The notes beneath the pieces are model-generated. The model ran no database searches. It was not told the origin of the DNA and saw only the letters and a program-made list of their open reading frames with translations. A stretch of DNA of 64,000 bases from an uncultured Gemmatimonadota bacterium (GTDB lineage Bacteria > SM23-81 > DAOVCL01). Below are positions 36,581 through 60,787 of the stretch, one piece after another. Position 1 is the first letter of the stretch. Every line of letters starts with the position of its first letter. The DNA lies in contig CAZVGK010000004.1 in the NCBI GenBank assembly GCA_964626665.1, forward strand, positions 90,613 through 154,612. The letters are read 5' to 3'. The translations under genes and the position numbers were made by a program.

Positions 36581-36633
36581 CTTTCCCTCCTAAATTTAGG
36601 TATTTAGGTATCTATGTATTTAGGTGTTTGTAG

Positions 36634-37410: not shown

Positions 37411-37464
37411 TGTTGCCTCCTCTACTAACAGGGATTTTAAGAGATTGAAAGAGATTTTTTTCTT

Positions 37465-37923: not shown

Positions 37924-37933
37924 TTTTTATCTC

Positions 37934-38860
37934 TTAATCTCTCTTCCAATCCCTGTTTTTTTTTGTGGGACTCAAAAGACTCTTTTTCACAAGTAATGGT
38001 TCTGGATTAATATAATTTAAGTCAAATCTGCAATACTTTTTGTCTATCCCAAATGCAACTGCCATAAGCTGAGTAAAGTAAAATATAGGAATTTCCTTAA
38101 AATCAGGGTGTTTTTCTTTTACCTCTCTTTGCCTATTATCCAAATTAAAAGCACATAAAGGGCAACTTGTTACCATTGCTTCTGCCCCCTCTCTTTGGGC
38201 ATGGGTGAGAATATCGTAGGCCAGATCAGCAACTACCCACTTATCCTGCACTGTCTGGTAGCTGCCGCAGCAGACCTTCTTGTAAGGATTGTCCACCACC
38301 TCTGCTCCTAAGGCGGAGAGGAGATCGGCCTCAATGGTGGGATCTTCGGGGTCGTCTATGGCCACCTCCTTGGGCCGCAACAACATACACCCATAGTAGG
38401 GGGCAACCTGCAGGCCCTTCAGGGGCATCTTCACCTTTACCTTTTCAAAACCCATCTCCTGAAGCAGGGAGAGAAAATGCACCACCTCCACCTCCCCTCG
38501 GTAATCCTCCTCCAGATACATCAGGTCATTGAGCTTAGTTAAGTCCTCTGGGTTCTCCTTCATCCGGAGATTTGCCTGTTTCAGGGTGTTGTAACACATT
38601 GAACAGAGGGTAATCAACCGGTGCTCATCATTGAGAGTACCATTCTCGTTTAGCTCCTGCACGCGGATGAGGTTTCTGATGGGAGCCAAATGGTGGATGA
38701 GGTCATCCGCCGTCAGGGAGAAGACTGTCCCACAACAGTTCCACTTGGGGAGCTCCACCAGCTCGATACCCAAAGTCTTGGCCACAGCCAGCGCGGAATC
38801 CTCAAAGTTCTTTGCTGTAGTCTTCAGCGTACATCCAGGATAATATGGCAGTTTCATCAT
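37934..38860 (-). CDS. hdrB: Heterodisulfide reductase subunit B (copy 2)
   Basis: YYPGC, WNCCG, CSMC, YYGC, VCCGS, SCPLC; start at MMKLP. Confidence 0.92.
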   Translation of the reverse strand: MMKLPYYPGCTLKTTAKNFEDSALAVAKTLGIELVELPKWNCCGTVFSLTADDLIHHLAPIRNLIRVQELNENGTLNDEHRLITLCSMCYNTLKQANLRMKENPEDLTKLNDLMYLEEDYRGEVEVVHFLSLLQEMGFEKVKVKMPLKGLQVAPYYGCMLLRPKEVAIDDPEDPTIEADLLSALGAEVVDNPYKKVCCGSYQTVQDKWVVADLAYDILTHAQREGAEAMVTSCPLCAFNLDNRQREVKEKHPDFKEIPIFYFTQLMAVAFGIDKKYCRFDLNYINPEPLLVKKSLLSPTKKNRDWKRD

Positions 38861-38888
38861 ATTAGTGCGTAAGACATAAGTGCGTAAG

Positions 38889-39242
38889 TTAGATGCTTCT
38901 GTGGAATTTCCATAATAGCTTCCCAACTTCTGTGTGTAAATCTTGCAATTTTCTATGCTCTTCAATGGTAAGGTAATTCAATCTTAAAGAGAAATCTAAA
39001 AGATATTCTACTTCTGCAGAAGAACCTAAAGCAATATTAAGAAATTGTTTTAACTCTTTTTTATTTTGTCTTCCATATCCTTCTACTATATTTGTAGGGA
39101 TTGATAAAGCTGCTCTTTGCAATTGAGAAGTAATCCCATAGATTCCTTCTTTTGGGAATTTTTTTGTTTCTAAATAAATTTAAAATGCCAATTCATCTGA
39201 TTTTCGCCAAACTATTAACTTTTTATATCCTTTCTCTTCCAT
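38889..39242 (-). pseudogene. Four-helix-bundle gene with in-frame TAA at codon 21
   Basis: MEEKGYKKLIVWRKSDELAF*IYLETKKFPKEGIYGITSQLQRAALSIPTNIVEG...FLNIALGSSAE. Confidence 0.88.
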
Positions 39243-39746: not shown

Positions 39747-42116
39747 TCATGCTCTCTTCTCCAATGTTTTCCTCTTCTCGTCAGGAATTGGACCCGCTTT
39801 TTTAATGAAGTCTGCTAAACTGTTTATATTATTAACAAATCCCCCTAACATTACAGTAACAAACTGGACAAATCTTACTCTCTCTTCTTCTATCCCTTCT
39901 TCTCTCAAAATATTATTTACTTTAGCAATATTTGACTTTATTGCTGAAATAACATGGGGATATGGAGATGACTTTTCTTCAGCCTCTCCCAAAAGTATTC
40001 CATCAGTCCCCGCTGCAAAAGCTTGCAATATAAGTTTAGGTGTAACCCTGCTACAACTCGGAATCCTGATTATCCTTGAATTTAAAGAATAAGACATCTT
40101 TGCTGTCCCAACATTGTCAGATAACCTATAAGCAGTCATATCATCTGCGAAAACAAGAAATCTTGTTTCTCCTTTTTTCTTACTTTTTAAGACAGACTCG
40201 ACTTCTGCCAGAAGTTGGGAATTTGTATAAACATGCAAATCCAGAGCATCTTTGGGACAAGACCCAATACAACTACCACATCCTTTACACAGAGCCTCAT
40301 TTATTTGGGCTAATTTTTCGGAAATTGATATTGCATTAAATGGGCATTGGTCTATGCATAGTTTACATCCATCACAAAGTTCTTCATGAACAAATGCCAT
40401 AATAGGGTCCAATGAATATTCTCCCTGATTCATAAGCCTTATAGCCCTTGAAGAAGCCGCCGATGCCTGAGCTACAGTATCTGGTATGTCTTTAGGTCCT
40501 TGAACTGTCCCAGCTAAAAATACACCATCGACAAGGGTATCAACAGGCTTAAATTTTGGATGTGCCTCCTGTAGAAAACCATCAGGGCTTTTGGCAAGTT
40601 TCAACATGTCTGCAATTTTATCAGTTCCTTTATTTGGACGCAAACCAACTGAGAGCACAACTGTATCAAATTCCGATTCTATTATCTGACGGGTAAGTGT
40701 ATCTTCAACTTTCAAAATCACTCTTTTATGGTCAGAATTTTTCATTACTTCTGCCACCCTGCCACGAATAAACTTAATTCCCATATTCTGTGCTCTTTTA
40801 TAATATTCTTCGAATCCCTTCCCATAAGCCCTAAGATCTGTATAAAATATATAAATATCCCTTTTCGGATTAGAATGTTTCAATAAACTTGCAAGTTTTG
40901 TTGCATACATACAGCATATTCTTGAGCAATACTCATTTCCGACTTGTTCATCTCTGGACCCCACACATTGAATAAAGGCAATTCTTTTCCCCAGGTCTCG
41001 TATTGGAGCACCCTCCGATGCATGGACTATCATTCGTTCCATCTGCAATGCAGTTACCACATTTTGGAATTTTCCGTAACCATAAACCTTCTTTTCTCCG
41101 GCATCAAAAATATCGTAGCCTGTGGCAACAATTATAGTATCGGCAATAAACTTTACCTTTTCCGGTTTCTGGTTAAAATCCACAGCACCCCCTGGGCAGT
41201 ATTTTTCACAGAGACCGCATACTTTTCCTCCTTTAGTAAGACGCAAACAAGTGTTCTCATCAATCAAATTTTTATAGGGAACCGCAAAACCAAAGGGTAT
41301 GTAAGTCGCCTTGCGAGAAATTAACCCTTCCTCAAACTCATCTACCACCTTAACAGGGCACTTCTCTTCACAGATTCCGCAGGCAGTGCATTTATCCATA
41401 TCTATATATCTCGGTTTTTTCTTAACAGTAACCTCAAAGGTCCCAAGATAGCCATCAATGTTTTCTATTTCTGAATATGTGAGCAAATTTATATTAGGAT
41501 TAGCTGGAACATCAGCCATTTTGGGTGAAAGTATACAGGCTGCACAATCCTCTGTCGGAAAAGTCCTTGATAGTTGTGCCATTTTGCCACCTATAGAAGG
41601 CTCTTTCTCAACAAGATAAACATCAAAACCTGCATCACCTAAATCTAATGCTGCTTGAATCCCTGCTATGCCTGCTCCTATCACTAATACCCTTTTGCCA
41701 ATAGGCATCATTTTTTTCTTTAAAGACTCATCCAATCTCGCTTTTGCTATAGCCATATTAGTGAGGTCTTTGGCTTTTTCTGTTGCATCCTTGGGAAAGT
41801 CAAAATGGGGCCATGCACATTGCTCTCTGATGTTTGCCATCTCAAAAACATAAGGAGATAAACCGGCTGCCTCAACAGTTCTCATAAAAGTTGCTCCCTG
41901 AAACTGTGGCGAACAGGCAGCTATTACTACTCTGTCCAATTTATGCTCCTTTACATCATCCAATACAAGTTTCTGCCCCAGATCCGAACACATATGCGTA
42001 TAATCCTTTGCCATAACAACATCAGGCTGTTTCTCGGCAAATGAGGTTACTTCCTTAACATCAATAACCTCAGATATATTACCACCACAGTGGCATACAT
42101 ATACCCCAATTCTCAT
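39747..42116 (-). CDS. hdrA: HdrA fused to a degenerate MvhD-like domain
   Basis: VYVCHCG, ANIREQC, GAGIAG, FPTEDCAAC, CVGSRD..CSRICCMYATK, EAHPK; MvhD-like C-terminus lacking most Cys. Confidence 0.92.
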   Translation of the reverse strand: MRIGVYVCHCGGNISEVIDVKEVTSFAEKQPDVVMAKDYTHMCSDLGQKLVLDDVKEHKLDRVVIAACSPQFQGATFMRTVEAAGLSPYVFEMANIREQCAWPHFDFPKDATEKAKDLTNMAIAKARLDESLKKKMMPIGKRVLVIGAGIAGIQAALDLGDAGFDVYLVEKEPSIGGKMAQLSRTFPTEDCAACILSPKMADVPANPNINLLTYSEIENIDGYLGTFEVTVKKKPRYIDMDKCTACGICEEKCPVKVVDEFEEGLISRKATYIPFGFAVPYKNLIDENTCLRLTKGGKVCGLCEKYCPGGAVDFNQKPEKVKFIADTIIVATGYDIFDAGEKKVYGYGKFQNVVTALQMERMIVHASEGAPIRDLGKRIAFIQCVGSRDEQVGNEYCSRICCMYATKLASLLKHSNPKRDIYIFYTDLRAYGKGFEEYYKRAQNMGIKFIRGRVAEVMKNSDHKRVILKVEDTLTRQIIESEFDTVVLSVGLRPNKGTDKIADMLKLAKSPDGFLQEAHPKFKPVDTLVDGVFLAGTVQGPKDIPDTVAQASAASSRAIRLMNQGEYSLDPIMAFVHEELCDGCKLCIDQCPFNAISISEKLAQINEALCKGCGSCIGSCPKDALDLHVYTNSQLLAEVESVLKSKKKGETRFLVFADDMTAYRLSDNVGTAKMSYSLNSRIIRIPSCSRVTPKLILQAFAAGTDGILLGEAEEKSSPYPHVISAIKSNIAKVNNILREEGIEEERVRFVQFVTVMLGGFVNNINSLADFIKKAGPIPDEKRKTLEKRA

Positions 42117-42412: not shown

Positions 42413-42862
42413 CTAATTTAACCTCAGATCCTCAGCTATCCTTGCGGCTAGCTCTGGGACCTTTGCCTGGATCTGGGGACTGCAGCCCAGGTGAAATCTG
42501 TCGTTCTCTACCACCTCTATGGCGTAGACCTCGATTAACCCCGGCACCTCATAACCCAACCTTTTCCCTAAACCAATCGCTGTGCCCAGCCCAACCCCGT
42601 GGCTGCCGGAGGGGAGACCCATCCCCAAATCCTCCAGCCGCAGCTTACGCATCCTCCCTAAATTTTTATCTCTCCCCTTGATGGAATCCACGATGATCGC
42701 CCTATCGTATCCGACAAGTTCCTCTAAGAGGGGAATCCCAGCCAGGTTGGCCTCCACCACTTCCACCCCGGAGAGAAGCCTCCCCACCTCCCTGGCTACC
42801 AAGATCCCCACCCCATCATCGGCCAGCAGGGGGTTACCCACCCCTACTATAACGGTCCTCAT
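42413..42862 (-). CDS. Hydrogenase maturation protease
   Basis: GVGNPLLADDGVG, IIVDS, GSHG. Confidence 0.93.
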   Translation of the reverse strand: MRTVIVGVGNPLLADDGVGILVAREVGRLLSGVEVVEANLAGIPLLEELVGYDRAIIVDSIKGRDKNLGRMRKLRLEDLGMGLPSGSHGVGLGTAIGLGKRLGYEVPGLIEVYAIEVVENDRFHLGCSPQIQAKVPELAARIAEDLRLN

Positions 42863-44319
42863 AGCTGGCGCAGGGTCCTCTCCACTCCCCCTTCCGGGTT
42901 CCTAATGTTCACCTCTAAGGGCATATCTCCGGGAAGGGAATGGGTGGCACAGGCCAGGCAGGGATCATAGGCCCGAAAGGCCATCTCCACCATGTTGAGC
43001 AGCCCATCGGAGACCTTCCCTCCCTTGATCAACCCCTTGGCCGCCTTTTCAATGGACATACAGACGGCCGCAGAGTTGTTCACCGTGGCCACGATCAGGT
43101 TTACCTCGGTAAGGATGCCTCGCTCATCTGTCTTGTAATGATGATAGAGGGTTCCCCGGGGGGCCTCCACCACGCCAATTCCTTCATCAGGAACAGCAGT
43201 GGGGATATTCCGCACCTGCGGATCGAGGATCTCCTCATCCTGAGCCAGCTCTAAGAGCCTCTCCGCGGCATAGAGGAGCTCCACCAACCTGGCCCAGTGA
43301 TAGGCCAGGGTGTTGTGGGCCGGCTTCCCCCCCAATGTCTCATACATTTTCTCATATTCCTGTTGGGCCAAGGGGGTGGCCATCCCCTCGGAGACGTTCA
43401 GCCTGGCCAAAGGGGCTACCCGATAGACGCCACTATCCTTCCCATCCACGAACCCCTTCCAGCCCACATCCTTGAGGTAGGGGAATTTTATGTAGCTCCA
43501 GGGTTCCACCCTCTCGGCGATGTATTTCAGATAATCCCGCGGCTTGAACTTGAGGAACTGGTGGCCCTCAGGATCAACCACCCTGATGTCGCCATCATAG
43601 AAGTTGACCTTGTTATTTTCATCAACCAACCCCATATAATAGGTATGATGCTTGTAGATATCCCCCACGATCACATCCACATACTCCTTGTTCTTGAGGA
43701 CAATCTCCTCAAAGGCCTGCAGGGCAAAGCGGGCAAACTCCACAGCATCCTTCCCGGTCTGGATATACTCCTCTCTCTCCTCTTTGCTCACCCCCTTGGA
43801 GACCCCTCCAGGGAGGTTGCATACCGGGTGGATGACCCTCCCCCCCTGCTTGCTGATAATGTCCCTCAACCTCCTCCTGATCTCTATCACCCTCTTGGCG
43901 GCATCCAACCCCACCTTCTGGATGACACCTAAGATGTTCCTCTCCCCGGCTGGCGCCTGGGGCCCCACGATGAAGTCCGGCCCCCCCAAGAAGAAGAAGT
44001 GGAGGGTGTGGTCCTCGGCCATAAAGGCGGAGTTGACCAGCTCCCTGATCTTCTTGGCTGCCGGTGGCGGATCAACCTGAAAGAGGTCATCGAGGGTCTT
44101 TCCCGAGGCCATATGGTGAGCGGTGGGACAGACCCCACAGATCTTGGGGGTAAGCCGGGGCATCTCCTCGGCCATCCGCCCCTCACAGAACTTCTCAAAC
44201 CCCCGCAGCTCCGGGACCTGGAAGTAGGCCTTCTCCACATCCCCCTTTTCATCCAAGAATATCTCTATCTTCCCATGACCCTCTAACCTGGTGATAGGGT
44301 CTATTGTGATCCGTTTCAT
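42859..44319 (-). CDS. mvhA: Group 3c [NiFe]-hydrogenase large subunit
   Basis: TRLEGH, RGFE, ICGVC, EAPRG, RAYDPCLACATH plus cleavable tail. Confidence 0.95.
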   Translation of the reverse strand: MKRITIDPITRLEGHGKIEIFLDEKGDVEKAYFQVPELRGFEKFCEGRMAEEMPRLTPKICGVCPTAHHMASGKTLDDLFQVDPPPAAKKIRELVNSAFMAEDHTLHFFFLGGPDFIVGPQAPAGERNILGVIQKVGLDAAKRVIEIRRRLRDIISKQGGRVIHPVCNLPGGVSKGVSKEEREEYIQTGKDAVEFARFALQAFEEIVLKNKEYVDVIVGDIYKHHTYYMGLVDENNKVNFYDGDIRVVDPEGHQFLKFKPRDYLKYIAERVEPWSYIKFPYLKDVGWKGFVDGKDSGVYRVAPLARLNVSEGMATPLAQQEYEKMYETLGGKPAHNTLAYHWARLVELLYAAERLLELAQDEEILDPQVRNIPTAVPDEGIGVVEAPRGTLYHHYKTDERGILTEVNLIVATVNNSAAVCMSIEKAAKGLIKGGKVSDGLLNMVEMAFRAYDPCLACATHSLPGDMPLEVNIRNPEGGVERTLRQL

Positions 44320-44377
44320 CTTTTACCTCTCGGTTGATAGGTAATAAGTAACGAGTTACAAGTGACAAGTAATGGAA

Positions 44378-44643
44378 TCATTTGAGGATTTTTCTCAATC
44401 CTACTATCATTTTGGATATTTCATCCAACTCGGCTAATCCCGCATTATTCATAAGAGTCCGTAGGGTGGTTTCGAATGACCAATAACTGAGAGGTCAGAT
44501 CCCCTGATCTAACCCTGGCAGAACAGGGGTTCTGCCACCTCGCTTTTGAATGGATAAAACCCTCGCCTCGGTTACCTCTGGCAAACCTTACCAATGAACT
44601 CTCTGCCTCTCTTCCACACATCCAACTTCAGGTGCGGTTTCAC
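44378..44643 (-). pseudogene. Decayed four-helix-bundle gene whose middle is replaced by palindromic elements
   Basis: N-end VKPHLKLDVWKRGREFIGKV from 44643; C-end AELDEISKMIVGLRKILK* ending at 44378; heptamer repeats at 44336-44373. Confidence 0.75.
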
Positions 44644-44656
44644 AACCCGTCGTTTG

Positions 44657-45637
44657 TTACTTCATTATCTTTCTGCGCAAGAGAGACGAGGGAAGGCTAT
44701 ACATATAGAAGAGGCCTGCCGGATCGGGGATCTGGTCAACCAACTTCTGCACCTCCTCGTCCGTCATCTGCTCTTCACCCTCGATCCCCAAGATGGAGGC
44801 CACAAAGGAGAGCACCCTTGCCCCCTGATCCTTCACCCCCTTTACCGGCCCAAAGCAACCGCGGCAGGGCATATGGGCATTGATGCAACGTTCCCCACAG
44901 CCGGATCTGGTCGCCGGTCCCAGGCAGATAACCCCCTGAGCCAAAAAGCATTTCTCCGGGTCCAAAATCACCTCATAAGGCCTTTTTATCTCCTTCATCA
45001 TCAACTTCTCAGGCTTGGAATCCGCCAGGGGACAGGTATCGCAGAGGGACTTATCCGGGGCCAGCACCGCCCCCTTCTCCGGCAGCTTTCCCTCCAATAT
45101 AGCATTTATCGCCTTCATTATGAGATCCGGGGGCGGGGCACAGCCAGGGATGTAGTAGTCCACCGGGATCACCTGATCAAGGGTATGCACCGTATTCCAG
45201 AACTCCGGTATGGTGAGCTCCTGGCCATCCACGATTGTCTTGGTCTGCGGCAGGACGCCTTTGGGGTTGTCCATAGTGGGCACCCCCTTGTAGACCCGCT
45301 CAAATATGGTCTCCCTGTTCCAGAAGTTGGCCAATCCGGGTATCCCCCCTATGTGGGCACAGGAACCGAAGGCAATCACCAGGCCTGACTTCCTTCGCAA
45401 AAGCTTAACCATCTCCTCCTGCTCCTCCGTCCTGATGGCCCCATTGATGAAGCTCACCGCGAGCTCCCCATCAGCCATTTGTTCCACATCCTTCTTCTTG
45501 AAGTCCAGGGCCACCGGCCAAAAGACTATATCCACCGCCCTAACAACCTCGAGGATATCCTCAGCCAGATCCACCACCGCCTCCTCACAGCCCCCACACG
45601 AGGCACACCAGTAAAATGCCACTTTCGGTTTAGCCAT
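44657..45637 (-). CDS. mvhG: Group 3c hydrogenase small subunit
   Basis: CASCGGCE, AFGSCAHIGG, IPGCAP, CLGPATRSGC, PCRGCFGP. Confidence 0.95.
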   Translation of the reverse strand: MAKPKVAFYWCASCGGCEEAVVDLAEDILEVVRAVDIVFWPVALDFKKKDVEQMADGELAVSFINGAIRTEEQEEMVKLLRRKSGLVIAFGSCAHIGGIPGLANFWNRETIFERVYKGVPTMDNPKGVLPQTKTIVDGQELTIPEFWNTVHTLDQVIPVDYYIPGCAPPPDLIMKAINAILEGKLPEKGAVLAPDKSLCDTCPLADSKPEKLMMKEIKRPYEVILDPEKCFLAQGVICLGPATRSGCGERCINAHMPCRGCFGPVKGVKDQGARVLSFVASILGIEGEEQMTDEEVQKLVDQIPDPAGLFYMYSLPSSLLRRKIMK

Positions 45638-46040
45638 CTTTCCCCCCTATTGGTCCTAACTCTGCCACCTTGTCGGCAAAATCATTCATCGCCCCCCGCA
45701 GCCGGGCAGATTCCCCGGTGGAAAACCACTCCAACCCCACCCTCTCTGGCTCAATATTAAACTGCTTAAGCAGGTTCCTCAGCAGGAAAACCCTTCTCCT
45801 GGCTTTATAGTTTCCGTTGTGTTCACATTCCCCAGGTGGGCATCCGGCAACCAATACGCCCCAGGCACCTTGAGATAACGCCTCTAATATCAACTCCGGA
45901 CTAACCCTCCCCGAACACATAGTGACGATGGGGTCAACCAAACTCTCATCTCCATAATAAGTCGATGAAGTAGAGAGCTGCAATCCTGGGCATACGGACC
46001 AGTTGCAGCAGAAAACGATTATCTTGGGAGCCTCTCTCAT
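45630..46040 (-). CDS. mvhD: MvhD-like 2Fe-2S protein (divergent)
   Basis: FCCNWSVC, MCSGRV, GCPPGECEH. Confidence 0.85.
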   Translation of the reverse strand: MREAPKIIVFCCNWSVCPGLQLSTSSTYYGDESLVDPIVTMCSGRVSPELILEALSQGAWGVLVAGCPPGECEHNGNYKARRRVFLLRNLLKQFNIEPERVGLEWFSTGESARLRGAMNDFADKVAELGPIGGKDG

Positions 46041-46041
46041 C

Positions 46042-46596
46042 TTACGCCTCCTGCAAGGAGCTTAACACCCTTTCCCCCAATTCCTCCGGGGTTATCCCCC
46101 ACCCTTCCCTCTGATAGATGGCCCCTGAGGGACAGGATGCCGCGCAGACGCCACAGCCCTCGCACTTCACCCTATCCACGGCTAGCTTCCCGTCGACCTG
46201 CACTAAGATGGCCTCTGGCTTACACACCGCGATGCAGATTCCGCATCGGCTACAGAGGTCATCATCGATGCTCATCGTGCTGCCCTGGACCTCGAGGCCT
46301 AACCCTTTCAGGTCGGCCCGCGCATCCCTGATGATCTCGGTTACCGGGACATTCGCCGAGCAGCTCTTTTCGCAGTTCTTGCAGTGGAAGCATTGAAATA
46401 TCTTTTCGGCAACATAGGAGGAGGCCTCAATCTCCCCGGTGAGCAGGCCATAAGCAAGCACGAGCTGTCCCCGCGGCGTATCCCCCTCCCAGTGGGAGGA
46501 CTTATAGAGGTGACAGAGCTCATAGCAGTAACCACACCTGATGCAGATGCTCAACTCATCTCGCCACTTCTTTAGCTTATCGAATTGCGCTCTCAT
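46042..46596 (-). CDS. Polyferredoxin: GlcF-type N-terminal dicluster domain + HdrA C-terminal-type dicluster domain
   Basis: Four CxxCxxCxxxC motifs; N-half resembles the N-terminus of 56334-57398; C-half resembles the HdrA C-terminus. Confidence 0.8.
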   Translation of the reverse strand: MRAQFDKLKKWRDELSICIRCGYCYELCHLYKSSHWEGDTPRGQLVLAYGLLTGEIEASSYVAEKIFQCFHCKNCEKSCSANVPVTEIIRDARADLKGLGLEVQGSTMSIDDDLCSRCGICIAVCKPEAILVQVDGKLAVDRVKCEGCGVCAASCPSGAIYQREGWGITPEELGERVLSSLQEA

Positions 46597-47021
46597 ACCC
46601 TTGCCTCCCCGAGCGGCAGTGGCCCCATTTGGCCTATCTGCTCAACGAACCCGTTGATCACCCTGGCAAACTTCGCTCCCTCAGATGCCGAGATCCATTC
46701 CAGGCGCAGCCTATCCGGTGCGATGCCAAAACCCCTGAGCACCTTCTTCAAAAGGAGGACCCTCCTCCTGGTCTTGTAATTGCCTGTCTGATAATGACAA
46801 TCCCCCGGATGACAGCCAGCCACCAACACCCCCCAGGCACCCTTTTCAAATGCCTCGAGGATCAGGCTGGGGTCGATTCTACTGGAGCAGAGGGTGGGGA
46901 TGATGGTAAAATCCGGCACCATCTGCATCCTTGATGTGCCCGCCAGATCGGCTGCCGCCGCAGAACACCACTTACAGGAAAAGGCAACGACCTTAACCCG
47001 CGAGTCCTTTTCTCTCTCCAT
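46593..47021 (-). CDS. mvhD: MvhD
   Basis: CKWCS..AADLAG, CSSRID, GCHPGDCHY, WISASEG. Confidence 0.93.
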   Translation of the reverse strand: MEREKDSRVKVVAFSCKWCSAAAADLAGTSRMQMVPDFTIIPTLCSSRIDPSLILEAFEKGAWGVLVAGCHPGDCHYQTGNYKTRRRVLLLKKVLRGFGIAPDRLRLEWISASEGAKFARVINGFVEQIGQMGPLPLGEARV

Positions 47022-47055: not shown

Positions 47056-47481
47056 TTACAGGAAAATCTCCCTTTTGGTGGGGTTGGGCCCCAAATTTTT
47101 GATCTTCCGGGCATAATCTCGCACCACCTGGGCAAACCTGACCCCCTCCGAGGCCGATATCCAGGAGAGCTGGAGTCGTTCCGCCTCCAGGCCTAAGCCA
47201 GCAAAAACGGCCTGTAAAAGCACAAACCTGCGGCGTGTATAGTAGTTCCCCTGCACATAATGACAGTCACCGGGGTGGCAGCCCCCAATAAGCACCCCAT
47301 CTGCCCCTTCCAGGAAGGTTTTAATCACCCCTAAGGGGTCCACCCTGCTGGAACACATCACCCTAATGGGGAGAAAAGACGGAGGATATTGGAGCCTACT
47401 TGTTCCGGCCAGGTCGGCAGCGGCGTAGGTGCACCACTTGCATATAAAGCCAATTATCTTGGGTTCGAACTCTTCCGGCAT
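47056..47481 (-). CDS. mvhD: MvhD
   Basis: CKWCTYAAADLAG, MCSSRVD, GCHPGDCHY. Confidence 0.95.
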   Translation of the reverse strand: MPEEFEPKIIGFICKWCTYAAADLAGTSRLQYPPSFLPIRVMCSSRVDPLGVIKTFLEGADGVLIGGCHPGDCHYVQGNYYTRRRFVLLQAVFAGLGLEAERLQLSWISASEGVRFAQVVRDYARKIKNLGPNPTKREIFL

Positions 47482-48582
47482 CTACCTCCCCACCTCTTGG
47501 AACTCCTTTTCCTTAAAAACAGTGAGGGGAACATCCTCCGCCAGATCCCTCCCCGGAACATAGTCAAACCTGGCCTGCACCTGCTCCCCCACCCGGTAGA
47601 AGATGGAACCAACCGGTATGGCTGCCGGACAGACATCTGTGCACATCCCACACCCCACACAGGAGATCCCCATATGGGTCAACCTGCCCAATTGATAGAT
47701 CAGGGAGTTGGGGGGAACCTTTATCCCTCCGCGCTCCGCAAGCTGAGCTAAATAGGTGGAAGGGTCATACTCATAGTCCCGGGAATCAAAGTCACAGAGC
47801 TCACAATAGCAAAGGGGGCAGGCATTGCCACAGGCATGGCAATTCAGACATCGGCCAAAGATATCCACCAATCCACTAAGGCCCAGCTCCTCTGATTTCA
47901 GTTCCTCGTAAAGCTCTTTCTTCGCCTCACCCCTCTTCTGCAGCAGCAGCTTCACTTCCTCTCCTGGAGCCTCCTCGTCGTGGATCTCCCCCTCCAATCC
48001 GGAGAGAAACTCCTCCCCTTTCTCCGTGTTCAGAATAAGGTCACACCTTTTGTTTAGCTCCCTATTCCCCGCCAGCTTCACTGTTATGTCTGCATTATAG
48101 GGCAGAAACTGGTTGCAGCCCCGACAGGTCGGCCTAATCCCCGCGGGGATCTCCCCCTGGCGCACCGCAATCCAATAATCTGCCTCCTTCACCCTACCTT
48201 GGGCAGCCAGCTTCAGGGGGTAAACCCCGCCACAGGTGGATGAGATAAAGAGAAAATTCTCTACGCTCCCCTGTTTGCGCTTCACCAGTTCCACAAAGGC
48301 ACGCAGCTCGCAGGGACGGAGAACGGCAGCCAGGGGCTCCTGCGGGCTTCCCAGCAGGGTAATTCGAGAGAGAACGGTTGCGGCGTTGGTCGGCATCAGG
48401 GGGTAAAGGGGCACGGCATCCTGAACTGTGGCTTGGTCGGTGATCAGGGCATAGGCCACTCCTCCATCCGGTAGCTTGAGCAGGGAGATGACCCCCTGCA
48501 CCTTGTGGCTGCGCAGCAGGAAGCGGAGAAGTTCCCTCATCCCCTCTTCCACCCCCTTTTCCATTCTCCAGACCTTGGCCAT
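47482..48582 (-). CDS. FdhB/FrhB-like Fe-S protein
   Basis: LRPCELRA, RPTCRGC, CLNCHACGNACPLCYCELC, SCVGCGMCTDVCP. Confidence 0.85.
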   Translation of the reverse strand: MAKVWRMEKGVEEGMRELLRFLLRSHKVQGVISLLKLPDGGVAYALITDQATVQDAVPLYPLMPTNAATVLSRITLLGSPQEPLAAVLRPCELRAFVELVKRKQGSVENFLFISSTCGGVYPLKLAAQGRVKEADYWIAVRQGEIPAGIRPTCRGCNQFLPYNADITVKLAGNRELNKRCDLILNTEKGEEFLSGLEGEIHDEEAPGEEVKLLLQKRGEAKKELYEELKSEELGLSGLVDIFGRCLNCHACGNACPLCYCELCDFDSRDYEYDPSTYLAQLAERGGIKVPPNSLIYQLGRLTHMGISCVGCGMCTDVCPAAIPVGSIFYRVGEQVQARFDYVPGRDLAEDVPLTVFKEKEFQEVGR

Positions 48583-48583
48583 C

Positions 48584-49762
48584 TCAGGACCTCCCCTCTG
48601 CCCGATAGGTCTCTAAGTAGGGCTTCTCTGCCCAGGCCAACTCCTCCTCCTTGTAGGCCACCAGCGGCAGGGCCGCCTCCATGCTTTCACCGGGACTATA
48701 GTCAAAGAGCTCCTGGGCTTCTTGGGCCACCAGGCTAACCACCTGGCCCACGGGAAGGGACATAGGACAGGCATCCTCACAGCTACCACAGGAGAGACAG
48801 GAGAGAGCGATATGAGACATCCGTCCTAAATGGAAGAGGAGGGTATCGGGGGGAAGCTTTAGACCCCCCTTCCTCTCCGCCCGCCTTATGTAGTTCTGGG
48901 GATCAAGCTTCAATGCACTGGATTCAAAGTAGCATTGGCGACAGTGACAGAGGGGACAGGCCCGCATACAGTTATGGCAGTTTATGCACTTACCAAAGGT
49001 CTGTAACAGCTTATCGTAACCCTTCACCTGAGAGCTTAACTCCCGAAACGTCTTCCTCCTCTTCTCCCGCCGCCTCAAAGTGGCCTCCCTCACCCATTCC
49101 TCCCAGTCCTTTATCTCTTCCTCCGGGGCAACCTCACATTCCTCTAACAGCTCTTCACCCCACCGGCTGCCCGCGAGGAGCAAGGGGCGACCATCTCCCC
49201 TTCCCAACAGCCCTATATGCAAGTCAGGGGGGGAACCGGCTTGATCGACCATACTAAACCTGTCGCATATCTGACAGAGAGGGCGCATCCCCTCACCCTG
49301 CCAATCCTCCAGGGCCCTTTCCCAAAGCTGCTTAGCCCCTGAGGGGTCGGCCAGCCAATCACTTAGGGGGACCACCCCTGGACAGTCATAGGTAATGACA
49401 AATATGTTGGCCAAATCCAACTGCTGCAACTTGGAGAGTTCAACCGCCGCCCGCCACTCACAGGGACGCATAACGGCCACAATCCTTTGGGTTGACTTTC
49501 CCTGCCTGGTTATGCTGCTCAGAGACTTGGCCCCCTGCACCGGCATCACCGGGGCAAAGGGGGCAGCCGCGGAGAGCAGGGAGCGGTCCTGGGCTGCCCA
49601 ACCAGAGAGGAGGACCCAGGCAAAGGAATCGCCGGCAGGTACCCTCATCGGCAACAGGGCAGCATCAAAGTAGCCCCTATCCAGCATCCCCCTTAAAAAA
49701 TCGCTGATCCCCTCCCCGCTGGTTTTCCCTCGGGGTAACAGTCCCACACGGCGAGGGCTCAA
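48584..49762 (-). CDS. FdhB/FrhB-like Fe-S protein (paralog)
   Basis: MRPCEWRA, RPLCQIC, CINCHNCMRACPLCHCRQC, SCLSCGSCEDACP. Confidence 0.85.
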   Translation of the reverse strand: MSPRRVGLLPRGKTSGEGISDFLRGMLDRGYFDAALLPMRVPAGDSFAWVLLSGWAAQDRSLLSAAAPFAPVMPVQGAKSLSSITRQGKSTQRIVAVMRPCEWRAAVELSKLQQLDLANIFVITYDCPGVVPLSDWLADPSGAKQLWERALEDWQGEGMRPLCQICDRFSMVDQAGSPPDLHIGLLGRGDGRPLLLAGSRWGEELLEECEVAPEEEIKDWEEWVREATLRRREKRRKTFRELSSQVKGYDKLLQTFGKCINCHNCMRACPLCHCRQCYFESSALKLDPQNYIRRAERKGGLKLPPDTLLFHLGRMSHIALSCLSCGSCEDACPMSLPVGQVVSLVAQEAQELFDYSPGESMEAALPLVAYKEEELAWAEKPYLETYRAEGRS

Positions 49763-50184
49763 GTATCCCTCCGCGACTTCAGCGGGTTGGGGCCCAGCTT
49801 CTTGATGTGATCGTTAAACTCCACTGCCGTATCCACAAACCTTCTCCCCTCGCTATGGGCCACATACCTGAACCAAATCCTCTCCGGCTCCAACCCCAGG
49901 GTGGAGAGGATAGACTTGACCAGGGCCACCCTCCGTCTGGCCCGGAAGTTCCCATCATTATAGTGACAGTCACCGGGATGACAGCCGGAGATCACCACCC
50001 CATCTGCTCCCTCTATCAAAGGCCGCAGCATCTGCACGGTGGAGAGCGAACCGGTGCAGTTGACCCGGGAGATGATTACATTCTCCGGATAATAGAGGTG
50101 ATGAGCTGCTGCGGTCTCGCTGCCCCCACTGCCACACCAGTTGCAGAGAAAATAGATTATCCGCGGGGTAAATTCTTCCTTCAT
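49759..50184 (-). CDS. mvhD: MvhD-like 2Fe-2S protein
   Basis: FLCNWC, VNCTGS, GCHPGDCHY. Confidence 0.88.
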   Translation of the reverse strand: MKEEFTPRIIYFLCNWCGSGGSETAAAHHLYYPENVIISRVNCTGSLSTVQMLRPLIEGADGVVISGCHPGDCHYNDGNFRARRRVALVKSILSTLGLEPERIWFRYVAHSEGRRFVDTAVEFNDHIKKLGPNPLKSRRDT

Positions 50185-53108
50185 AGAAGTAGAGCATCGA
50201 GCGCCGCAATCGATTGGTTGCCAATAAAATCCCTTAAATAGGAGGCATCATTGGGACAGGCCGCCACACAGGCCCCACAGGAATCACACAAAGAAGGCCG
50301 CACCACAGCAATCTTCCGCACCTCATCTATATAGCGGGCCGCATAGGGACAGACATCTACGCAGAGGCCGCACCCCATACACAGGGACTCCTTTACCTCG
50401 GCCACATAGGGCCCATTGGGAGGGGGCAGTTCCCCCTTACCCAAAAGCACCAACGCCCTCCCCGCAGCATCCCGGGCGGTCAACAGCGATTCCGCAAACC
50501 CCCGGGGGGAATGGGCTCCCCCCACCGGATAGATGCAGTTCGTTGCCCATTCGTAGGGCTTTGTCTGCTTCTTGATGATCTCCTCGTAGGGGTAGGCATC
50601 CGCATCGCTCTCCCAGAAACCATCCTGGTCCAGGGAATAGCCCAACAGGGCAGCTAACCTCTCATTGTTCTCCCTATCTGGGATAATACCCGTGCTCAAG
50701 ACCACTAAATCGGCCCTCTCCTCCTGGCCAGTGGGGAGTTTGACAACCAGGGATTTCCCCTCCCTGCTCACCTGGGGGTAACCAGCGGCGGGAAACCTGA
50801 CAAACTTCACCTGGGCCTCTACCGCCCTCCGGTAATAGTCCTCCACCCCATAGCTGGTTAGATCACGGTAGAAGATGGTCACCTGACTACCATTTTCCCT
50901 CAGGAGAAGCGCATTGCGCAGCGCCTGCTGGCAACAGACCCGGGAACAGTAACTGTGTTCCTCATCCCGCGAGCCCACACACTGGATCATAGCGATGAAA
51001 CCTATACCCTTCCATTTCTCCAGCCCATTCTGCAGCTCGGTTTGGGTGATCACCCCTTCATCCTGGCCATAGAGAAAGCCATCAGGACGGTATTCCCGCG
51101 CCCCTGTGGCCACGACGATTGCCCCTGCCTCCCCGGACTTCTCACCCTGTGGGGTGGTTAAGAGGAGGTAGAAGTTGCCCCCATATCCATCGACCCCTTT
51201 CAGCTCTGAATTCGTATATATTGTTATGCGTTCATCCCCCTCCACCTGGGAGATCAGCTTCTGAAGATAGCTCCTCTGTTTGGGGTTGAGATAAGCGGTC
51301 TTCCCCCCCAATTTCCCCTCCCGCTCCACCAGGGTTACCGGGAAGCCCCCTTGGGCTATCTCATAGGCTGCAACCAAACCAGCCCCTCCGGCCCCTAAAA
51401 CAAGGGCCGCTGGGGTAAAGCTGTCCCTCAGCACAGGGGCAATTCTTGCCCAGCGCACCTTTTCCACCCCTCCCCTAATTAGGGTCAAGGCCTTCTTCAG
51501 CATCTTCCCCTTATCCCTATGGACATTGATCACATCCTCCCGCAACGGCAGGAATTCGGCCAACAGGGGGCTCAGCCCAGCTCCCAGCACCGCGGAGCGA
51601 AACTTTCCGGACTTCTGAATGGGGGTACAGGCAGCCAAGACCACCCTGTTTACCCCAGAGGCCCTGATTCTCTCCGCGGTCTCCTTAATGGTGGCCGGCG
51701 TGCAACATCCGCGGATGATCTCCGCATGGGAGACCCCAGGAATTTCCGCGACCCTTTGGGCCAATTGCGGGAGATCCAACTTTGACTCAAAAGTGCCAAA
51801 ACAGCTACAGATAAAGACCCCTATCTTGGCCTCCTCTGAGGGTAGATCCCGCAACTGGGGGGACGGTGGGGGTTTAAAAGTCGGTTCTCCTAAGTATTTC
51901 AAAGCTTCGCTCAGGGCGGCACAGCCCTCCCAGATGGTCTCCGGATTGCCCTTGGGGCCGGTAAACTCCCCCACGGCAAAGATGCCATCCACATCGGTCT
52001 GGGTCGAGGAAAACTCCCTTAACCGACAAAAGCCACCGCGGTCAGGCTTTACCCCAAACAGGCGGGAGAGCTCACCCATCTGAGTAGGTGGCCTCTGTCC
52101 GGCAATGAGAATGACCAGATCATATCCTTCTCTCCTCTCCTCCCCCTCCAATTCATACTTCAGGGTTGCCTCCTCATTGGTCTGGGGAAGGACCTGCAGC
52201 CTCTCGGCCCTGACCACCTTTACCCCAGCGTTGACTGCCTTTACATACCACCTGTAGTGGGACTTGCCAAACCCCCGATAGTCCCGGAGATAGACGGCCA
52301 CTTGTGCCTCAGGGATAACCCCCTTAACCTTCAATGCCCGATAAACAGCGGTTACCGAAAGGTTGTATGGTTCATACTCCTTCCCCCTCTGAAAATGGGG
52401 GGTAATCACAATGGCCAATTTGTGGGGGAGCTGGCCAGAGGCCAACCTCAGGGAATCGCGCACAAAGTTGGTGAGAGACGATCTCCTGGCTAACTCGGAG
52501 TTGCGCACCACCCAGGGGAACCTCCCCACCCCAAAATCCCTTAACTCCTCATCAGTTGGCTCCTCAAACTCCCAGGCCAGGATGATGGCCCCCACCCTGA
52601 CCTCAACTACCTCTTCCTTCCTCTCCAACTTCAACGCCCCGGTGGGGCAGGCCTCCTCACACTTACCACACTTGGGGCAATTCTCCCAGTCAATAAGGTA
52701 GGTGTTTTCCCACATCACCTGAGGATGGACGGAGATGGGTTTCCTGCCGGCAACCTCCACCGGACAGGCCTCCACACAGCGGTCGCATTCAATACAGCTA
52801 TAGTTATCAACGAGCTGGTCCCTCTTCTTGAACTTCACCCGGAAATCCCCCCCCTGGCCCGTTACCTCAATCACCTCTGAATTATAGTAATCCTGCAGAC
52901 ATCCTAAGGACTTGAAGAGTCGCTGCGGAAATTGGCCACACAGCCAACAGAGATCCAGGGGAAGCTGGGAAAGGGCCTGATTCCTTACCTCGTTCACCCA
53001 GGAACCCCGATTGAGAAGGATTACCTTATAGCCCTTCTTGCATAAGGCATAAGCTGCTCTATATCCACCTAAGTTGGTCCCATAGATAAGGGCAGCAGCA
53101 TCCATCAC
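50181..53108 (-). CDS. Large tandem HdrA-like protein with degenerate first module
   Basis: Two HdrA-like modules; the second has GAGGAG, CVGSRD..CSRVCC and a C-terminal dicluster; the first has GTNLGG and lacks CSRVCC. Confidence 0.85.
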   Translation of the reverse strand: MMDAAALIYGTNLGGYRAAYALCKKGYKVILLNRGSWVNEVRNQALSQLPLDLCWLCGQFPQRLFKSLGCLQDYYNSEVIEVTGQGGDFRVKFKKRDQLVDNYSCIECDRCVEACPVEVAGRKPISVHPQVMWENTYLIDWENCPKCGKCEEACPTGALKLERKEEVVEVRVGAIILAWEFEEPTDEELRDFGVGRFPWVVRNSELARRSSLTNFVRDSLRLASGQLPHKLAIVITPHFQRGKEYEPYNLSVTAVYRALKVKGVIPEAQVAVYLRDYRGFGKSHYRWYVKAVNAGVKVVRAERLQVLPQTNEEATLKYELEGEERREGYDLVILIAGQRPPTQMGELSRLFGVKPDRGGFCRLREFSSTQTDVDGIFAVGEFTGPKGNPETIWEGCAALSEALKYLGEPTFKPPPSPQLRDLPSEEAKIGVFICSCFGTFESKLDLPQLAQRVAEIPGVSHAEIIRGCCTPATIKETAERIRASGVNRVVLAACTPIQKSGKFRSAVLGAGLSPLLAEFLPLREDVINVHRDKGKMLKKALTLIRGGVEKVRWARIAPVLRDSFTPAALVLGAGGAGLVAAYEIAQGGFPVTLVEREGKLGGKTAYLNPKQRSYLQKLISQVEGDERITIYTNSELKGVDGYGGNFYLLLTTPQGEKSGEAGAIVVATGAREYRPDGFLYGQDEGVITQTELQNGLEKWKGIGFIAMIQCVGSRDEEHSYCSRVCCQQALRNALLLRENGSQVTIFYRDLTSYGVEDYYRRAVEAQVKFVRFPAAGYPQVSREGKSLVVKLPTGQEERADLVVLSTGIIPDRENNERLAALLGYSLDQDGFWESDADAYPYEEIIKKQTKPYEWATNCIYPVGGAHSPRGFAESLLTARDAAGRALVLLGKGELPPPNGPYVAEVKESLCMGCGLCVDVCPYAARYIDEVRKIAVVRPSLCDSCGACVAACPNDASYLRDFIGNQSIAALDALLL

Positions 53109-55081
53109 CCCACCCTATCCTCTGAGGAGAGGATGGCCTCAGCCATTTTTAGTAGCTGCTCATCCCGGAAGTTGCGCTGCTGAGAGGCCCCCGAGGGACA
53201 GCCAGCCACACAGGAGCCACAACCTTCGCACTTTACCTCATTCACCTGGGCTATCTTCTTCCCCTCCTGCACCTCCATCTCCCGGGCATCATAGGGGCAG
53301 AGGGAGATGCAGAGCCCACAGCCACTACAGAGGTCCTCATCAACTGTGGCCACAATGGGATCATGGTATAGTTCCTCCTGGCTAAACAGCTCCAGCACCT
53401 TTGCCGCGGCCCCCGAGGCCTGGGCCACGGTGTCCGGGATGTCCCGGGGGGCCTGGCCGCAACCGGCCAGAAATATCCCTGGGGTCAGGGTCTCCATGGG
53501 CCGCAGCTTGGGGTGGGCCTCGGTGAGAAATCCATAAACATCTACACCTATCTTCAGCTTGCGCACCAAGTCCTCTATCCCCGGAGATGAGATTATGGCC
53601 ATCCCCAGGACAACGAGGTCGCACCTCACCTCCAGGGGCTTTCCGGAGAGAGTGTCGGCAGCCAGCACCACCAGCTCGCCATTGTTGGCATAGATCTTGG
53701 AGACCTTACCCCTGATGTAGGTTACCTGGTCCTCCTCCTGGGCCCGCTGCACAAACTCCTCATATCCCTTGCCATCAGAGCGCACATCGATATAGAAAAC
53801 GATGGGCTGACCGTCAGGGACCCGGTGTTTGTAGAGCATAGCATGTTTGGCCAGATACATACAGCAGACCTTTGAACAATAGGGCTTATGGAGCTCTGAA
53901 TCCCTCGAGCCCACACAGGAGATGAAGGCCACCCTCTTGGGGACCTGACCATCAGAGGGACGGCGCACCTCCCCCTCGGTGGGGCCGGAGGCGGAGAGGA
54001 GCCTCTCAAACTGCAACCCATTGATCACATTCTCATACCTGCCCCCCCCATACTCCCCTATCCTCTCCATCCCGTAGAGCTGATAGCCGGTGGCCACCAC
54101 AATGGCCCCCACCTCCTCCTCAACAATCACATCCTCTTGCTCATAATCTATCGCCCCTGTGGGACAGAGCTTCTCACATATCCGGCACTTTCCAGTTTGG
54201 AAGTAAAGGCAATGAGCGGCATCGATCACTGCCTTGGCAGGAACTGCTTGCGGGAAGGGAATGTAGATAGCCTTCCTCTTGGTCAACCCCTCTTCGAACT
54301 CCGAGGGAACCTCGACGGGGCATTTCTCCATACATATTCCACAGCCAATGCATTTATCGAAGTCCACATAGCCTGGCTTTTTCCTTATCTTCACCTGAAA
54401 GTTCCCCACATAGCCGGAGACCTCCGCGACCTCCGCATAGGTGTATAATTTGATATTGGGGTGATGCCCCACGGCCACCATCTTTGGTGTTAATATGCAC
54501 TGAGAACAGTCGAGGGTAGGGAAGGTCTCCGATAGCTGCGCCATATGTCCACCAATGGAAGACTCCCTCTCCACCAAGATTACTTCATAGCCGGCGTTTC
54601 CCATATCCAGGGATGCCTGGATGCCAGCGATCCCTCCCCCAATGACCAGAACCCGCTTGGTCATCGGAAGGGCCAAGGGGGTAAGCTCCTCATTGAGTTT
54701 AACCTTCTCCACCACGGCCTCGATGATGCGCACTGCCTTCCGGGTGGCCTGGGACCTGTTGGTATGAATCCAACTGCAATGCTCACGAATGTTGGCTATC
54801 TCACATCTGTAGGGGTTGAGCCCAGCCTGGCCCACGGCATTTCTGAAGGTCACCTCATGCAGGTTTGGCGAGCAGGAGGCCACTACCACCCCATTTAGCC
54901 CCTTCTCCTTTATGCGCTCTCGAATCATCTTCTGCCCCGGGTCAGAGCACATATACTGGTAATCCTCAGCGTGCACCACTCCCGGGTAGGTGCGGGCCGC
55001 CTCCACCGCCGCCTGCACATCCACCGTAGCGGCGATGTTTATCCCACAGTGACAGACAAATACACCTATTCTATCTTCCAT
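53105..55081 (-). CDS. hdrA: Heterodisulfide reductase subunit A
   Basis: VFVCHCG, ANIREHC, GGGIAG, FPTLDCSQC, QFERLL, CSKVCCMYLAK, EAHPKLRP. Confidence 0.96.
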   Translation of the reverse strand: MEDRIGVFVCHCGINIAATVDVQAAVEAARTYPGVVHAEDYQYMCSDPGQKMIRERIKEKGLNGVVVASCSPNLHEVTFRNAVGQAGLNPYRCEIANIREHCSWIHTNRSQATRKAVRIIEAVVEKVKLNEELTPLALPMTKRVLVIGGGIAGIQASLDMGNAGYEVILVERESSIGGHMAQLSETFPTLDCSQCILTPKMVAVGHHPNIKLYTYAEVAEVSGYVGNFQVKIRKKPGYVDFDKCIGCGICMEKCPVEVPSEFEEGLTKRKAIYIPFPQAVPAKAVIDAAHCLYFQTGKCRICEKLCPTGAIDYEQEDVIVEEEVGAIVVATGYQLYGMERIGEYGGGRYENVINGLQFERLLSASGPTEGEVRRPSDGQVPKRVAFISCVGSRDSELHKPYCSKVCCMYLAKHAMLYKHRVPDGQPIVFYIDVRSDGKGYEEFVQRAQEEDQVTYIRGKVSKIYANNGELVVLAADTLSGKPLEVRCDLVVLGMAIISSPGIEDLVRKLKIGVDVYGFLTEAHPKLRPMETLTPGIFLAGCGQAPRDIPDTVAQASGAAAKVLELFSQEELYHDPIVATVDEDLCSGCGLCISLCPYDAREMEVQEGKKIAQVNEVKCEGCGSCVAGCPSGASQQRNFRDEQLLKMAEAILSSEDRVG

Positions 55082-55937: not shown

Positions 55938-55939
55938 CC

Positions 55940-60727: not shown

Positions 60728-60787
60728 AACAAACATCCTCAATTAAGCAAAAAAAACTAACCTGAAACTTTCATAAACCGCAGCTAA

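Follow-up and report, generated by a model that had tools for sequence, protein, structure and literature searches.

The gene examined here lies at positions 46042-46596 on the minus strand of a 64,000-nucleotide (nt) stretch of DNA from an uncultured Gemmatimonadota bacterium (GenBank assembly GCA_964626665.1, contig CAZVGK010000004.1, forward-strand positions 90,613 to 154,612; hereafter the window). It begins with ATG, ends with a stop codon at 46042-46044, and its open reading frame (ORF) specifies a protein of 184 amino acids (aa). With a probability of roughly 0.7, this protein is an iron-sulfur (Fe-S) "wire" subunit that links a GlcD-type, flavin adenine dinucleotide (FAD)-dependent D-2-hydroxyacid dehydrogenase to the adaptor MvhD and, through MvhD, to a machine that accepts its electrons. 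Sequence comparison makes it a member of an old and widespread family in which a GlcF-type N-terminal domain is followed by a ferredoxin domain, with or without MvhD in the same chain, and which would be a partner of GlcD.

The sequence shows four cluster motifs, shared between a GlcF-type domain and a domain of the type found in the tail of HdrA. The N-terminal half (aa 1-105, 46282-46596) corresponds to the helical domain with two [4Fe-4S] clusters of GlcF/HdrD-type proteins (Pfam Fer4_8, or Fer4_8/Fer4_17, at aa 14-83, 57.6 bits) and carries the predicted GlcD-docking face; its cluster cysteines, C18, C21, C24, and C28 together with C69, C72, C75, and C79, are invariant. The C-terminal half (aa 106-184, 46045-46281) is a bacterial-type ferredoxin with two [4Fe-4S] clusters, similar to the C-terminus of HdrA, plus a short C-terminal helix. 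Pfam identifies a classical dicluster ferredoxin at aa 108-161 (Fer4_7 at aa 115-159, 60.7 bits), and the cluster cysteines are C115, C118, C121, and C125 and C145, C148, C151, and C155. An earlier note on this DNA, made from the sequence alone, had pointed out both resemblances, and BLASTP bears them out. Residues 8-102 align without gaps to aa 6-100 of the 354-aa GlcF-like protein encoded at 56334-57398 (55/95 identities, 58%, E 2e-38), and residues 109-180 align to aa 579-653 of the HdrA encoded at 53105-55081 (36/75 identities, 48%, E 1e-15). These similarities are well beyond chance. The same two proteins are the closest paralogs in the whole 3.17-Mb genome (57% and E 1e-35 for the N-terminal half, for which the runner-up has E 3e-4 and 24% identity; 49% and E 7e-15 for the C-terminal half). 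The local HdrC is not among the genome matches at E ≤ 1e-3. Both checks set by the same note, whether the N-terminal half is nearer to the local GlcF than to HdrC or HdrD and whether an interface with GlcD or MvhD is predicted (see below), came out in its favour.

The resemblances stop at these two domains. Pfam finds no CCG domain (PF02754) in the 184 residues, whereas the local 354-aa GlcF-like protein scores 86 bits, and no FlpD/MvhD domain (PF02662), which is found instead in the separate next gene at 45630-46040. The HdrA match is confined to HdrA residues 579-653, so that the flavin core and the N-terminal cluster domain of HdrA have no counterpart. No NCBIfam model reaches its cut-off (HdrA models give 35-44 bits for cut-offs of 1100-1400), and there are no tandem polyferredoxin units, only the single bacterial-type unit at aa 108-161 (NCBIfam VhuB, 32 bits for a cut-off of 600). 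The AlphaFold model of the protein has a mean predicted local distance difference test score (pLDDT) of 81 and a predicted template modelling score of 0.78. A Foldseek search with the whole model returned matches for the C-terminal half only (HdrA chains first, then pyruvate:ferredoxin oxidoreductase delta and complex I TYKY) and nothing for the N-terminal half.

A word-indexed search gave 94 homologs of 101-322 aa. According to the search table, 64 of these are longer (about 310-322 aa) and include PF02662, with the domains in the order GlcF-type, ferredoxin, MvhD, and about one-third are stand-alone proteins of 182-189 aa. The 30 aligned family members all keep the same 16 cysteines, which form four CxxCxxCxxxC motifs and leave room for four [4Fe-4S] clusters. 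An exhaustive search of representative sequences showed few 50%-identity clusters with the full architecture, the next matches of the N-terminal half being 355-aa Fer4_8+CCG proteins (51%). Three of the sequences from that search (P0097, of 561 aa with FliG and GNAT parts, P0100, and P0101) look like assembly or frame chimeras and were left uncounted. Contigs of one genome per species were then scanned with the family alignment, as a single-protein query gave 1 locus only. This provided 164 relatives, and the locus counts given below refer to the best 80 of them, whose ORFs were labelled by BLASTP against the window's own proteins (upstream counts: the 77 loci with at least 1.5 kb upstream; downstream counts: the 79 loci with room). 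These 80 loci come from Dehalococcoidia/Chloroflexota, Thermoplasmatota, Acidobacteriota, Cloacimonadota, WOR-3, Fermentibacteria, Coatesbacteria, KSB1, Armatimonadota, Spirochaetia, Planctomycetota, Syntrophorhabdaceae, and a Woesearchaeota bin. Among 40 related genomes, the full two-domain protein is found in a single genome of the same genus, with the same layout as in the window, and six more match solely where long HdrA-like ORFs end in ferredoxin and MvhD. The sequencing runs that contain this DNA are salt-marsh metagenomes, most of which may be its source, and no RNA run is listed among them.

Directly upstream, on the same strand, 62 of the 77 loci have an ortholog of the window GlcD (60-75% identity), and start and stop codons often overlap. 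In five more loci only a GlcF-like gene stands between GlcD and the family member, and the remaining ten have hdr/mvh genes or nothing recognisable upstream. On the other side, 58 of 79 loci encode MvhD as a C-terminal extension of the family protein, 20 have it as the next gene downstream, and one carries a frameshifted fusion. Every fused MvhD domain (58/58) best matches the MvhD encoded immediately downstream of the wire gene in the window and not the three other MvhDs of the window, and so does every adjacent MvhD of the split loci (20/20). The downstream gene (45630-46040, minus strand, PF02662, 129 bits) thus corresponds to the split-off C-terminal domain of the fused family form and is the probable [2Fe-2S] partner. 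The MvhD encoded upstream (46593-47021, minus strand, PF02662, 171 bits) is never the top match of a fused domain. The earlier note had correctly placed the gene between two mvhD genes and had allowed for either product as partner; the downstream one now appears to be the cognate and the upstream one does not.

A model of the complex between the window GlcD and the wire scores 0.92, 0.91, and 0.91 in three runs, with 0.00 for the best of three controls. The runs share at least 91% of their contacts, and the partner pLDDT does not fall below 83. Of 80 solved complexes, 58 reach the mark used for such scores, as do 2 of 110 mismatched pairs; this calibration holds only roughly here, because the alignments used as input (33 rows for each protein) were our own. 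On the wire side the modelled interface involves only residues 12-82, hence the N-terminal half, including the conserved W36-E37 and the R42 region; on the GlcD side it involves residues 23-36, 74-76, 92-95, 137-140, 329-343, and 476-478. Identity between the wire and the GlcF-like N-terminal domain is only mildly higher at the interface (22/33) than elsewhere (33/62). The model supports the binding of GlcD by the N-terminal half, the interface that the earlier note had predicted. More generally, that note's proposal of an adaptor with one face for GlcD and another for MvhD finds support in three independent computational lines: the neighbourhoods, the fusions, and the model.

The mechanism suggested by these data would run as follows. 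The N-terminal half, with its two [4Fe-4S] clusters, would dock on GlcD and take electrons from the flavin, as gene context and model indicate. The two [4Fe-4S] clusters of the C-terminal half would hand them to the [2Fe-2S] cluster of MvhD, an arrangement to which fusions and neighbourhoods point. Gene order, together with the established role of MvhD, suggests as the most direct continuation in the window that MvhD would plug the dehydrogenase into the MvhG/MvhA hydrogenase encoded immediately downstream; alternatively, an HdrA-type flavoprotein of the same gene string might be the recipient. The family would thus have swapped the CCG domains of GlcF, which reduce disulfides or quinones, for a ferredoxin and MvhD. 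The substrate would be a D-2-hydroxyacid, D-malate or D-lactate, supplied by the neighbouring LarA-family racemase.

In the window, the genes concerned follow each other on the minus strand. A LarA homolog is followed, after a 234-nt gap, by the GlcD-like FAD oxidase, then after 404 nt by a string of 13 genes with gaps of at most 34 nt, and after a further 337 nt by MvhA and a putative protease. The string begins with the GlcF-like gene and continues with HdrC, HdrB, HdrA, a 975-aa HdrA-like protein, MvhD, two FrhB_C+Fer4 proteins, MvhD, MvhD, the wire, MvhD, and MvhG, where it ends at 44657. The wire gene overlaps the upstream mvhD by 4 nt and is separated from the downstream mvhD by 1 nt, and the latter overlaps mvhG by 8 nt. 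GlcD (57803-59248; Pfam FAD_binding_4 and FAD-oxidase_C), the predicted partner of the N-terminal half, has a single close copy in the genome, the other paralog being 34% identical. The GlcF/HdrD-like Fe-S protein (56334-57398; Fer4_8 and two CCG domains) is a second candidate partner for it. The hydrogenase subunits are of the MvhG type (small, [NiFe], 44657-45637; NCBIfam VhuG, E 7e-64) and of the MvhA type (large, [NiFe], 42859-44319; VhuA, E 6e-121), both below the curated cut-offs. The putative hydrogenase maturation protease (42413-42862) is named from its position and size alone, homologs being found after mvhA in related loci. Between the GlcF-like gene and the wire with its upstream mvhD, at 47056-56317, Pfam and the ORFs give hdrC, hdrB, hdrA (658 aa), the 975-aa HdrA-like gene, mvhD, the two FrhB_C+Fer4 genes (392 and 366 aa), and mvhD; HdrA-type recipients and additional input modules may be among them. 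All the genes listed are on the minus strand.

Orthologs of the window GlcD are not restricted to one Fe-S partner. In the GlcD tree, the 58 GlcDs that precede a wire-family member are interspersed with the six that precede a GlcF-like gene, without clustering of the labels (500/500 shuffles scored as low), and the window GlcD nests inside the tree; GlcDs with either partner therefore form one orthologous lineage. Both partners are encoded in 8 of 80 loci. The genome of the window itself has one GlcD of this type and both kinds of Fe-S partner, and the earlier note's suggestion of a single GlcD with two interchangeable electron outlets, the CCG partner or MvhD, fits the data so far as sequences can tell. 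In the five genomes where the family gene is away from glcD, the GlcD ortholog is always retained (69-87% identical), and in two of them it is followed by a GlcF-like gene. Other genes present within 10 kb are a LarA homolog (44 of 80 loci), mvhG/mvhA (33 loci), an HdrA-like gene (28 loci), and a GlcF-like gene (8 loci). Past the family protein and its MvhD, the first gene that could be recognised codes for LarA in 33 loci; 17 have mvhG there, and 15 a further mvhD. mvhG and mvhA follow the family gene directly in about 15 of the 80, as 2 of the 17 listed are distant, low-identity hydrogenases.

Several observations weigh against the proposed wire. In the window, the glcD gene does not adjoin the wire gene; it is about 11 kb upstream on the same strand with 11 genes between, and it is followed by the complete GlcF-like gene instead. 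The closest relatives (L010, L001, L018, and L052) also hold their gene among hdr/mvh genes and not beside glcD. The modelled interface is no more conserved than the rest of the proteins (0.69 vs 0.69 for the wire, p = 0.44; 0.74 vs 0.78 for GlcD, p = 0.83), and the complex score may come in part from solved relatives such as 9ojn_A, a 1042-aa "iron-sulfur-binding reductase" that matches the GlcF-like protein. Further, mvhGA is within 10 kb in only 33 of 80 loci, so that the hydrogenase is not a universal endpoint, and the substrate is ambiguous (see following). One may suppose that in this lineage the protein was re-used as an extra ferredoxin subunit of Mvh/Hdr, in an MvhB-like role, and no longer serves GlcD, which would use the GlcF-like protein only. 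The placement of the gene among mvhD, hdrA, and mvhGA in the window and in these relatives (73% identity for L010), its translational coupling to mvhD on either side, and the GlcF-like gene that follows GlcD elsewhere in two of those genomes would all suit such a change of role. It is nevertheless unlikely: the score of 0.91 against 0.00 was obtained with the window's own GlcD and wire, the window copy agrees with the family consensus at the predicted interface as others do (0.71; median of others 0.69), all five such genomes retain the GlcD ortholog, and glcD lies 404 nt upstream of the tightly packed 13-gene string, on the same strand. The likeness to HdrC, which shares the Fer4_8/Fer4_17 domains and after which the Joint Genome Institute names some fused members ("heterodisulfide reductase subunit C"), would suggest a subunit serving a CCG/HdrB-type protein, or else a free soluble polyferredoxin without fixed partner. 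Both are very improbable: the local HdrC is absent from the genome matches and hdrB is adjacent to the family gene in 0 of 80 loci, which led us to reject the HdrC reading, and the tight association with GlcD and MvhD speaks against a free polyferredoxin.

The top paralogs of both halves are encoded within 11 kb in the window, and the earlier note had described a chimera of GlcF and HdrA; a recent local fusion of the two neighbouring genes, devoid of conserved function, would explain this proximity. However, 164 species-level genomes drawn from many phyla have the same two-domain order with the 16 invariant cysteines. In a tree of 103 domains, 81 of 81 family N-terminal halves form one clade (Shimodaira-Hasegawa-like approximate likelihood ratio test support 99), with the GlcF-like domains outside. 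The window N-terminal half sits beside that of L010 (73% identity, vs 58% with the local GlcF-like protein), and the window GlcF-like domain groups with the GlcF-like domains of other genomes. The tree separates the two, and the wire and the local GlcF-like gene are therefore old paralogous lineages and not recombination partners; the chimera is an old family trait, and a local event is effectively ruled out. Regarding the last partner, a substantial though less than even chance must be given to HdrA, in which case GlcD, wire, and MvhD would form an input or output module of a bifurcating or confurcating Hdr, each module having its own MvhD; only the final acceptor then differs from the reading preferred here. 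In 33 of 80 loci a LarA homolog comes next after the fusion with no adjacent hydrogenase, and four of five genomes with only GlcD-fusion-LarA encode both HdrA and MvhA homologs elsewhere. In Thermoplasmatota the hydrogenase has a separate MvhD, and the GlcD-fusion pair lies beside it inside hdrA/hdrBC clusters. The window holds four free mvhD genes, an MvhD-like tail on a 789-aa HdrA that brings the count to five, and three HdrA-like genes. Hdr is described as taking various input modules via VhuD/MvhD in the available part of PMC13518236. On the other hand, mvhD, mvhG, and mvhA directly follow the wire here and in about 15 loci, without any other mvhD for the hydrogenase, and, by standard potentials, a heterodisulfide-type acceptor would not allow a donor at -190 mV to reduce ferredoxin. 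The earlier note's wiring of the dehydrogenase to the hydrogenase agrees with the mvhGA directly downstream here, but the endpoint could be HdrA instead or as well.

Energetics bear on the direction of such a wire. The H+/H2 couple has a potential of -414 mV, and the oxaloacetate/malate couple one near -170 mV. For lactate/pyruvate the value is -190 mV (PMC5861303, available part). With the hydroxyacid couple near -190 mV, H2 production from it would demand a very low H2 level or the simultaneous oxidation of reduced ferredoxin at HdrA (confurcation), being uphill otherwise; the opposite process, H2-driven reduction of an oxoacid, runs downhill. It is tempting, if rather doubtful, to go further and see in GlcD, the wire, MvhD, and MvhGA an undescribed enzyme that directly links the oxidation of a D-2-hydroxyacid (malate or lactate) to the reduction of protons, or the oxidation of H2 to the reduction of an oxoacid. 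In this organism the enzyme would be one of several MvhD-tagged modules docking interchangeably on HdrA-type flavoproteins, with GlcD switching between CCG and MvhD outlets, and the resulting multi-plug confurcation hub would let sediment anaerobes of many phyla oxidise hydroxyacids to H2.

The proposed module recalls several known systems and differs from each. With GlcF/HdrD-type subunits, such as that of the glycolate oxidase GlcDEF, the wire has in common the N-terminal helical domain with two [4Fe-4S] clusters (51-58% identity to the 354/355-aa Fer4_8+CCG proteins) and the position right after glcD seen in its family. D-lactate dehydrogenases of sulfate reducers are likewise of the GlcD plus Fe-S/CCG type. 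GlcF-type subunits, however, carry CCG domains, in place of which the wire has ferredoxin and MvhD, so that its electron outlet would be an Fe-S relay and not a disulfide or quinone site. With MvhAGD-HdrABC (PDB 5ODC) and the HdrA-MvhD fusions of the HdrA2 type, the likeness is at the other end. The family profile matches the MvhD chain 5odc_D (E 2e-30) and residues 564-636 of the HdrA chain 5odc_A (E 1e-19), and the ferredoxin and MvhD part of a fused member can be aligned colinearly, at 29% identity and E 6e-21, to the tail of the 789-aa HdrA-MvhD fusion encoded in the window. HdrA has in addition a flavin/thioredoxin-reductase body, which the wire lacks, having a GlcF-type domain attached instead, and the wire therefore has no bifurcating site. 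The polyferredoxins MvhB/VhuB are multi-[4Fe-4S] proteins encoded with mvhDGA, like the wire, and the family profile matches 9sw6_G, but only through bacterial-type ferredoxin repeats (nine stretches, best 35 bits). MvhB has no GlcF-type domain and is not associated with glcD.

Where oxygen and respiration are lacking, the oxidation of lactate or malate (about -190 mV) poses a known thermodynamic problem, for which the single well-described solution is, to our knowledge, the Etf-based confurcating lactate dehydrogenase. In Ldh-EtfAB (LctBCD) of Acetobacterium woodii (PDB 7QH2), LctD is close to the window GlcD (E 2.9e-72) and faces that same problem with a 2-hydroxyacid at about -190 mV (PMC5861303, in the part available). 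The partner there is EtfAB, with flavins and NAD, whereas here it would be four [4Fe-4S] clusters and MvhD, leading to a hydrogenase or Hdr. The available portions of PMC5861303 and PMC13518236 also describe MvhD or VhuD with its cluster within electron-transfer distance of an HdrA cluster and, together with the N- and C-terminal regions of HdrA, attaching different input modules. In the Mvh/Vhu hydrogenases, FdhAB, and MetFV-HdrABC-MvhD, MvhD is the plug between input enzyme and HdrA (PMC13518236, PMC5861303, same portions), as proposed here, except that the input enzyme would be a 2-hydroxyacid dehydrogenase, a kind for which the literature covered gave no precedent. No description of a GlcD plus ferredoxin-MvhD module was found in the literature covered; supplementary tables (e.g., Table S1 of PMC7583248) fall outside that coverage and may hold context. 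Sequence data suggest a new input module for the MvhD/Hdr/Mvh system, made of known domains. If this is true, it would represent a new class of input module for the Hdr/MvhD plug system and a second route, all Fe-S, from hydroxyacids into hydrogenases and Hdr-type bifurcating complexes. At least 164 species-level genomes carry the family, among them members of Thermoplasmatota, Dehalococcoidia, Acidobacteriota, Cloacimonadota, and other groups abundant in sediments, peat, and digesters. Within it, the window provides a helpful natural variant, in which the wire is separate from MvhD, about 11 kb from glcD and beside mvhGA, and the same GlcD has a classical CCG-type partner.

The LarA homolog (59483-60742, minus strand; Pfam Lar_N and LarA_C) is a candidate nickel-pincer 2-hydroxyacid racemase and provides the clues to the substrate. 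Its top NCBIfam model is the malate racemase LarAH6 (389.6 bits for a cut-off of 500), ahead of LarA (303.9 bits for a cut-off of 460), both below cut-off. Specificity positions, taken from the available part of PMC7583248 and read off alignments, give a mixed signature. The two residues past the catalytic His are Tyr-Phe, where Mar2 has Tyr-Lys and LarA has Phe-Phe; the motif GRK is LarA-like, malate racemases having GHK; and the Gln before the catalytic Lys is Mar2-like, with a Lys at the position of Mar2 K351. The protein may act on a dicarboxylic 2-hydroxyacid, and D-malate is somewhat favoured over D-lactate. COG0277 and COG0247 occur near several groups of LarA homologs (PMC7583248, same part).

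Some loci of the family show peculiar arrangements. In L046 (1493-6441) there is a tandem of GlcD, GlcF-like, GlcD, and fusion, so that each Fe-S partner has a dehydrogenase to itself; the GlcD tree places the two dehydrogenases in separate regions. In L052 (2963-6399) the fused gene sits between mvhG and mvhA. The frameshift noted above is inside the MvhD domain of a Chloroflexota fusion (L056, 10004-10801). Alone among the five genomes checked, this one gave neither an HdrA nor an MvhA homolog with the queries used, which may reflect co-loss or an assembly error. From archaea to a dozen bacterial phyla, the GlcD orthologs are unusually conserved (75% mean column identity), and their tree does not follow taxonomy, which points to repeated horizontal transfer of the module.

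In the window, four separate mvhD genes lie within 4.6 kb of the minus strand (45630-46040, 46593-47021, 47056-47481, and 49759-50184), in a stretch adjoining three HdrA-like genes and the two FrhB_C+Fer4 genes (47482-49762), as might be expected if there are several input modules with one MvhD plug apiece. The 789-aa HdrA (39747-42116, minus strand) ends in an MvhD-like tail that, by alignment, lacks the paired-Cys start and the Cys-rich loop of the MvhD domains of the family, and this tail may be a cluster-less, purely structural MvhD domain. Upstream of the cluster are genes for a two-subunit class I fumarase (62256-63658, minus strand). Downstream (34922-38965, minus strand), a PD-(D/E)XK nuclease gene is inserted in a group that otherwise encodes a TfrA-like fumarate-reductase flavoprotein, an Fe-S protein of 258 aa, and an HdrB/SdhE-like CCG protein. 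Rfam gave zero matches over 39000-61500, and consensus scans were at chance level for promoter-like sites (18 vs 12.5 expected) and terminator-like sites (14 vs 19), none of the latter being placed in the intergenic gaps of the 13-gene string. In this otherwise tightly packed string, mvhG and mvhA are separated by 337 non-coding nt (44320-44656), where a terminator-like hairpin is found on the opposite strand at 44516-44537.

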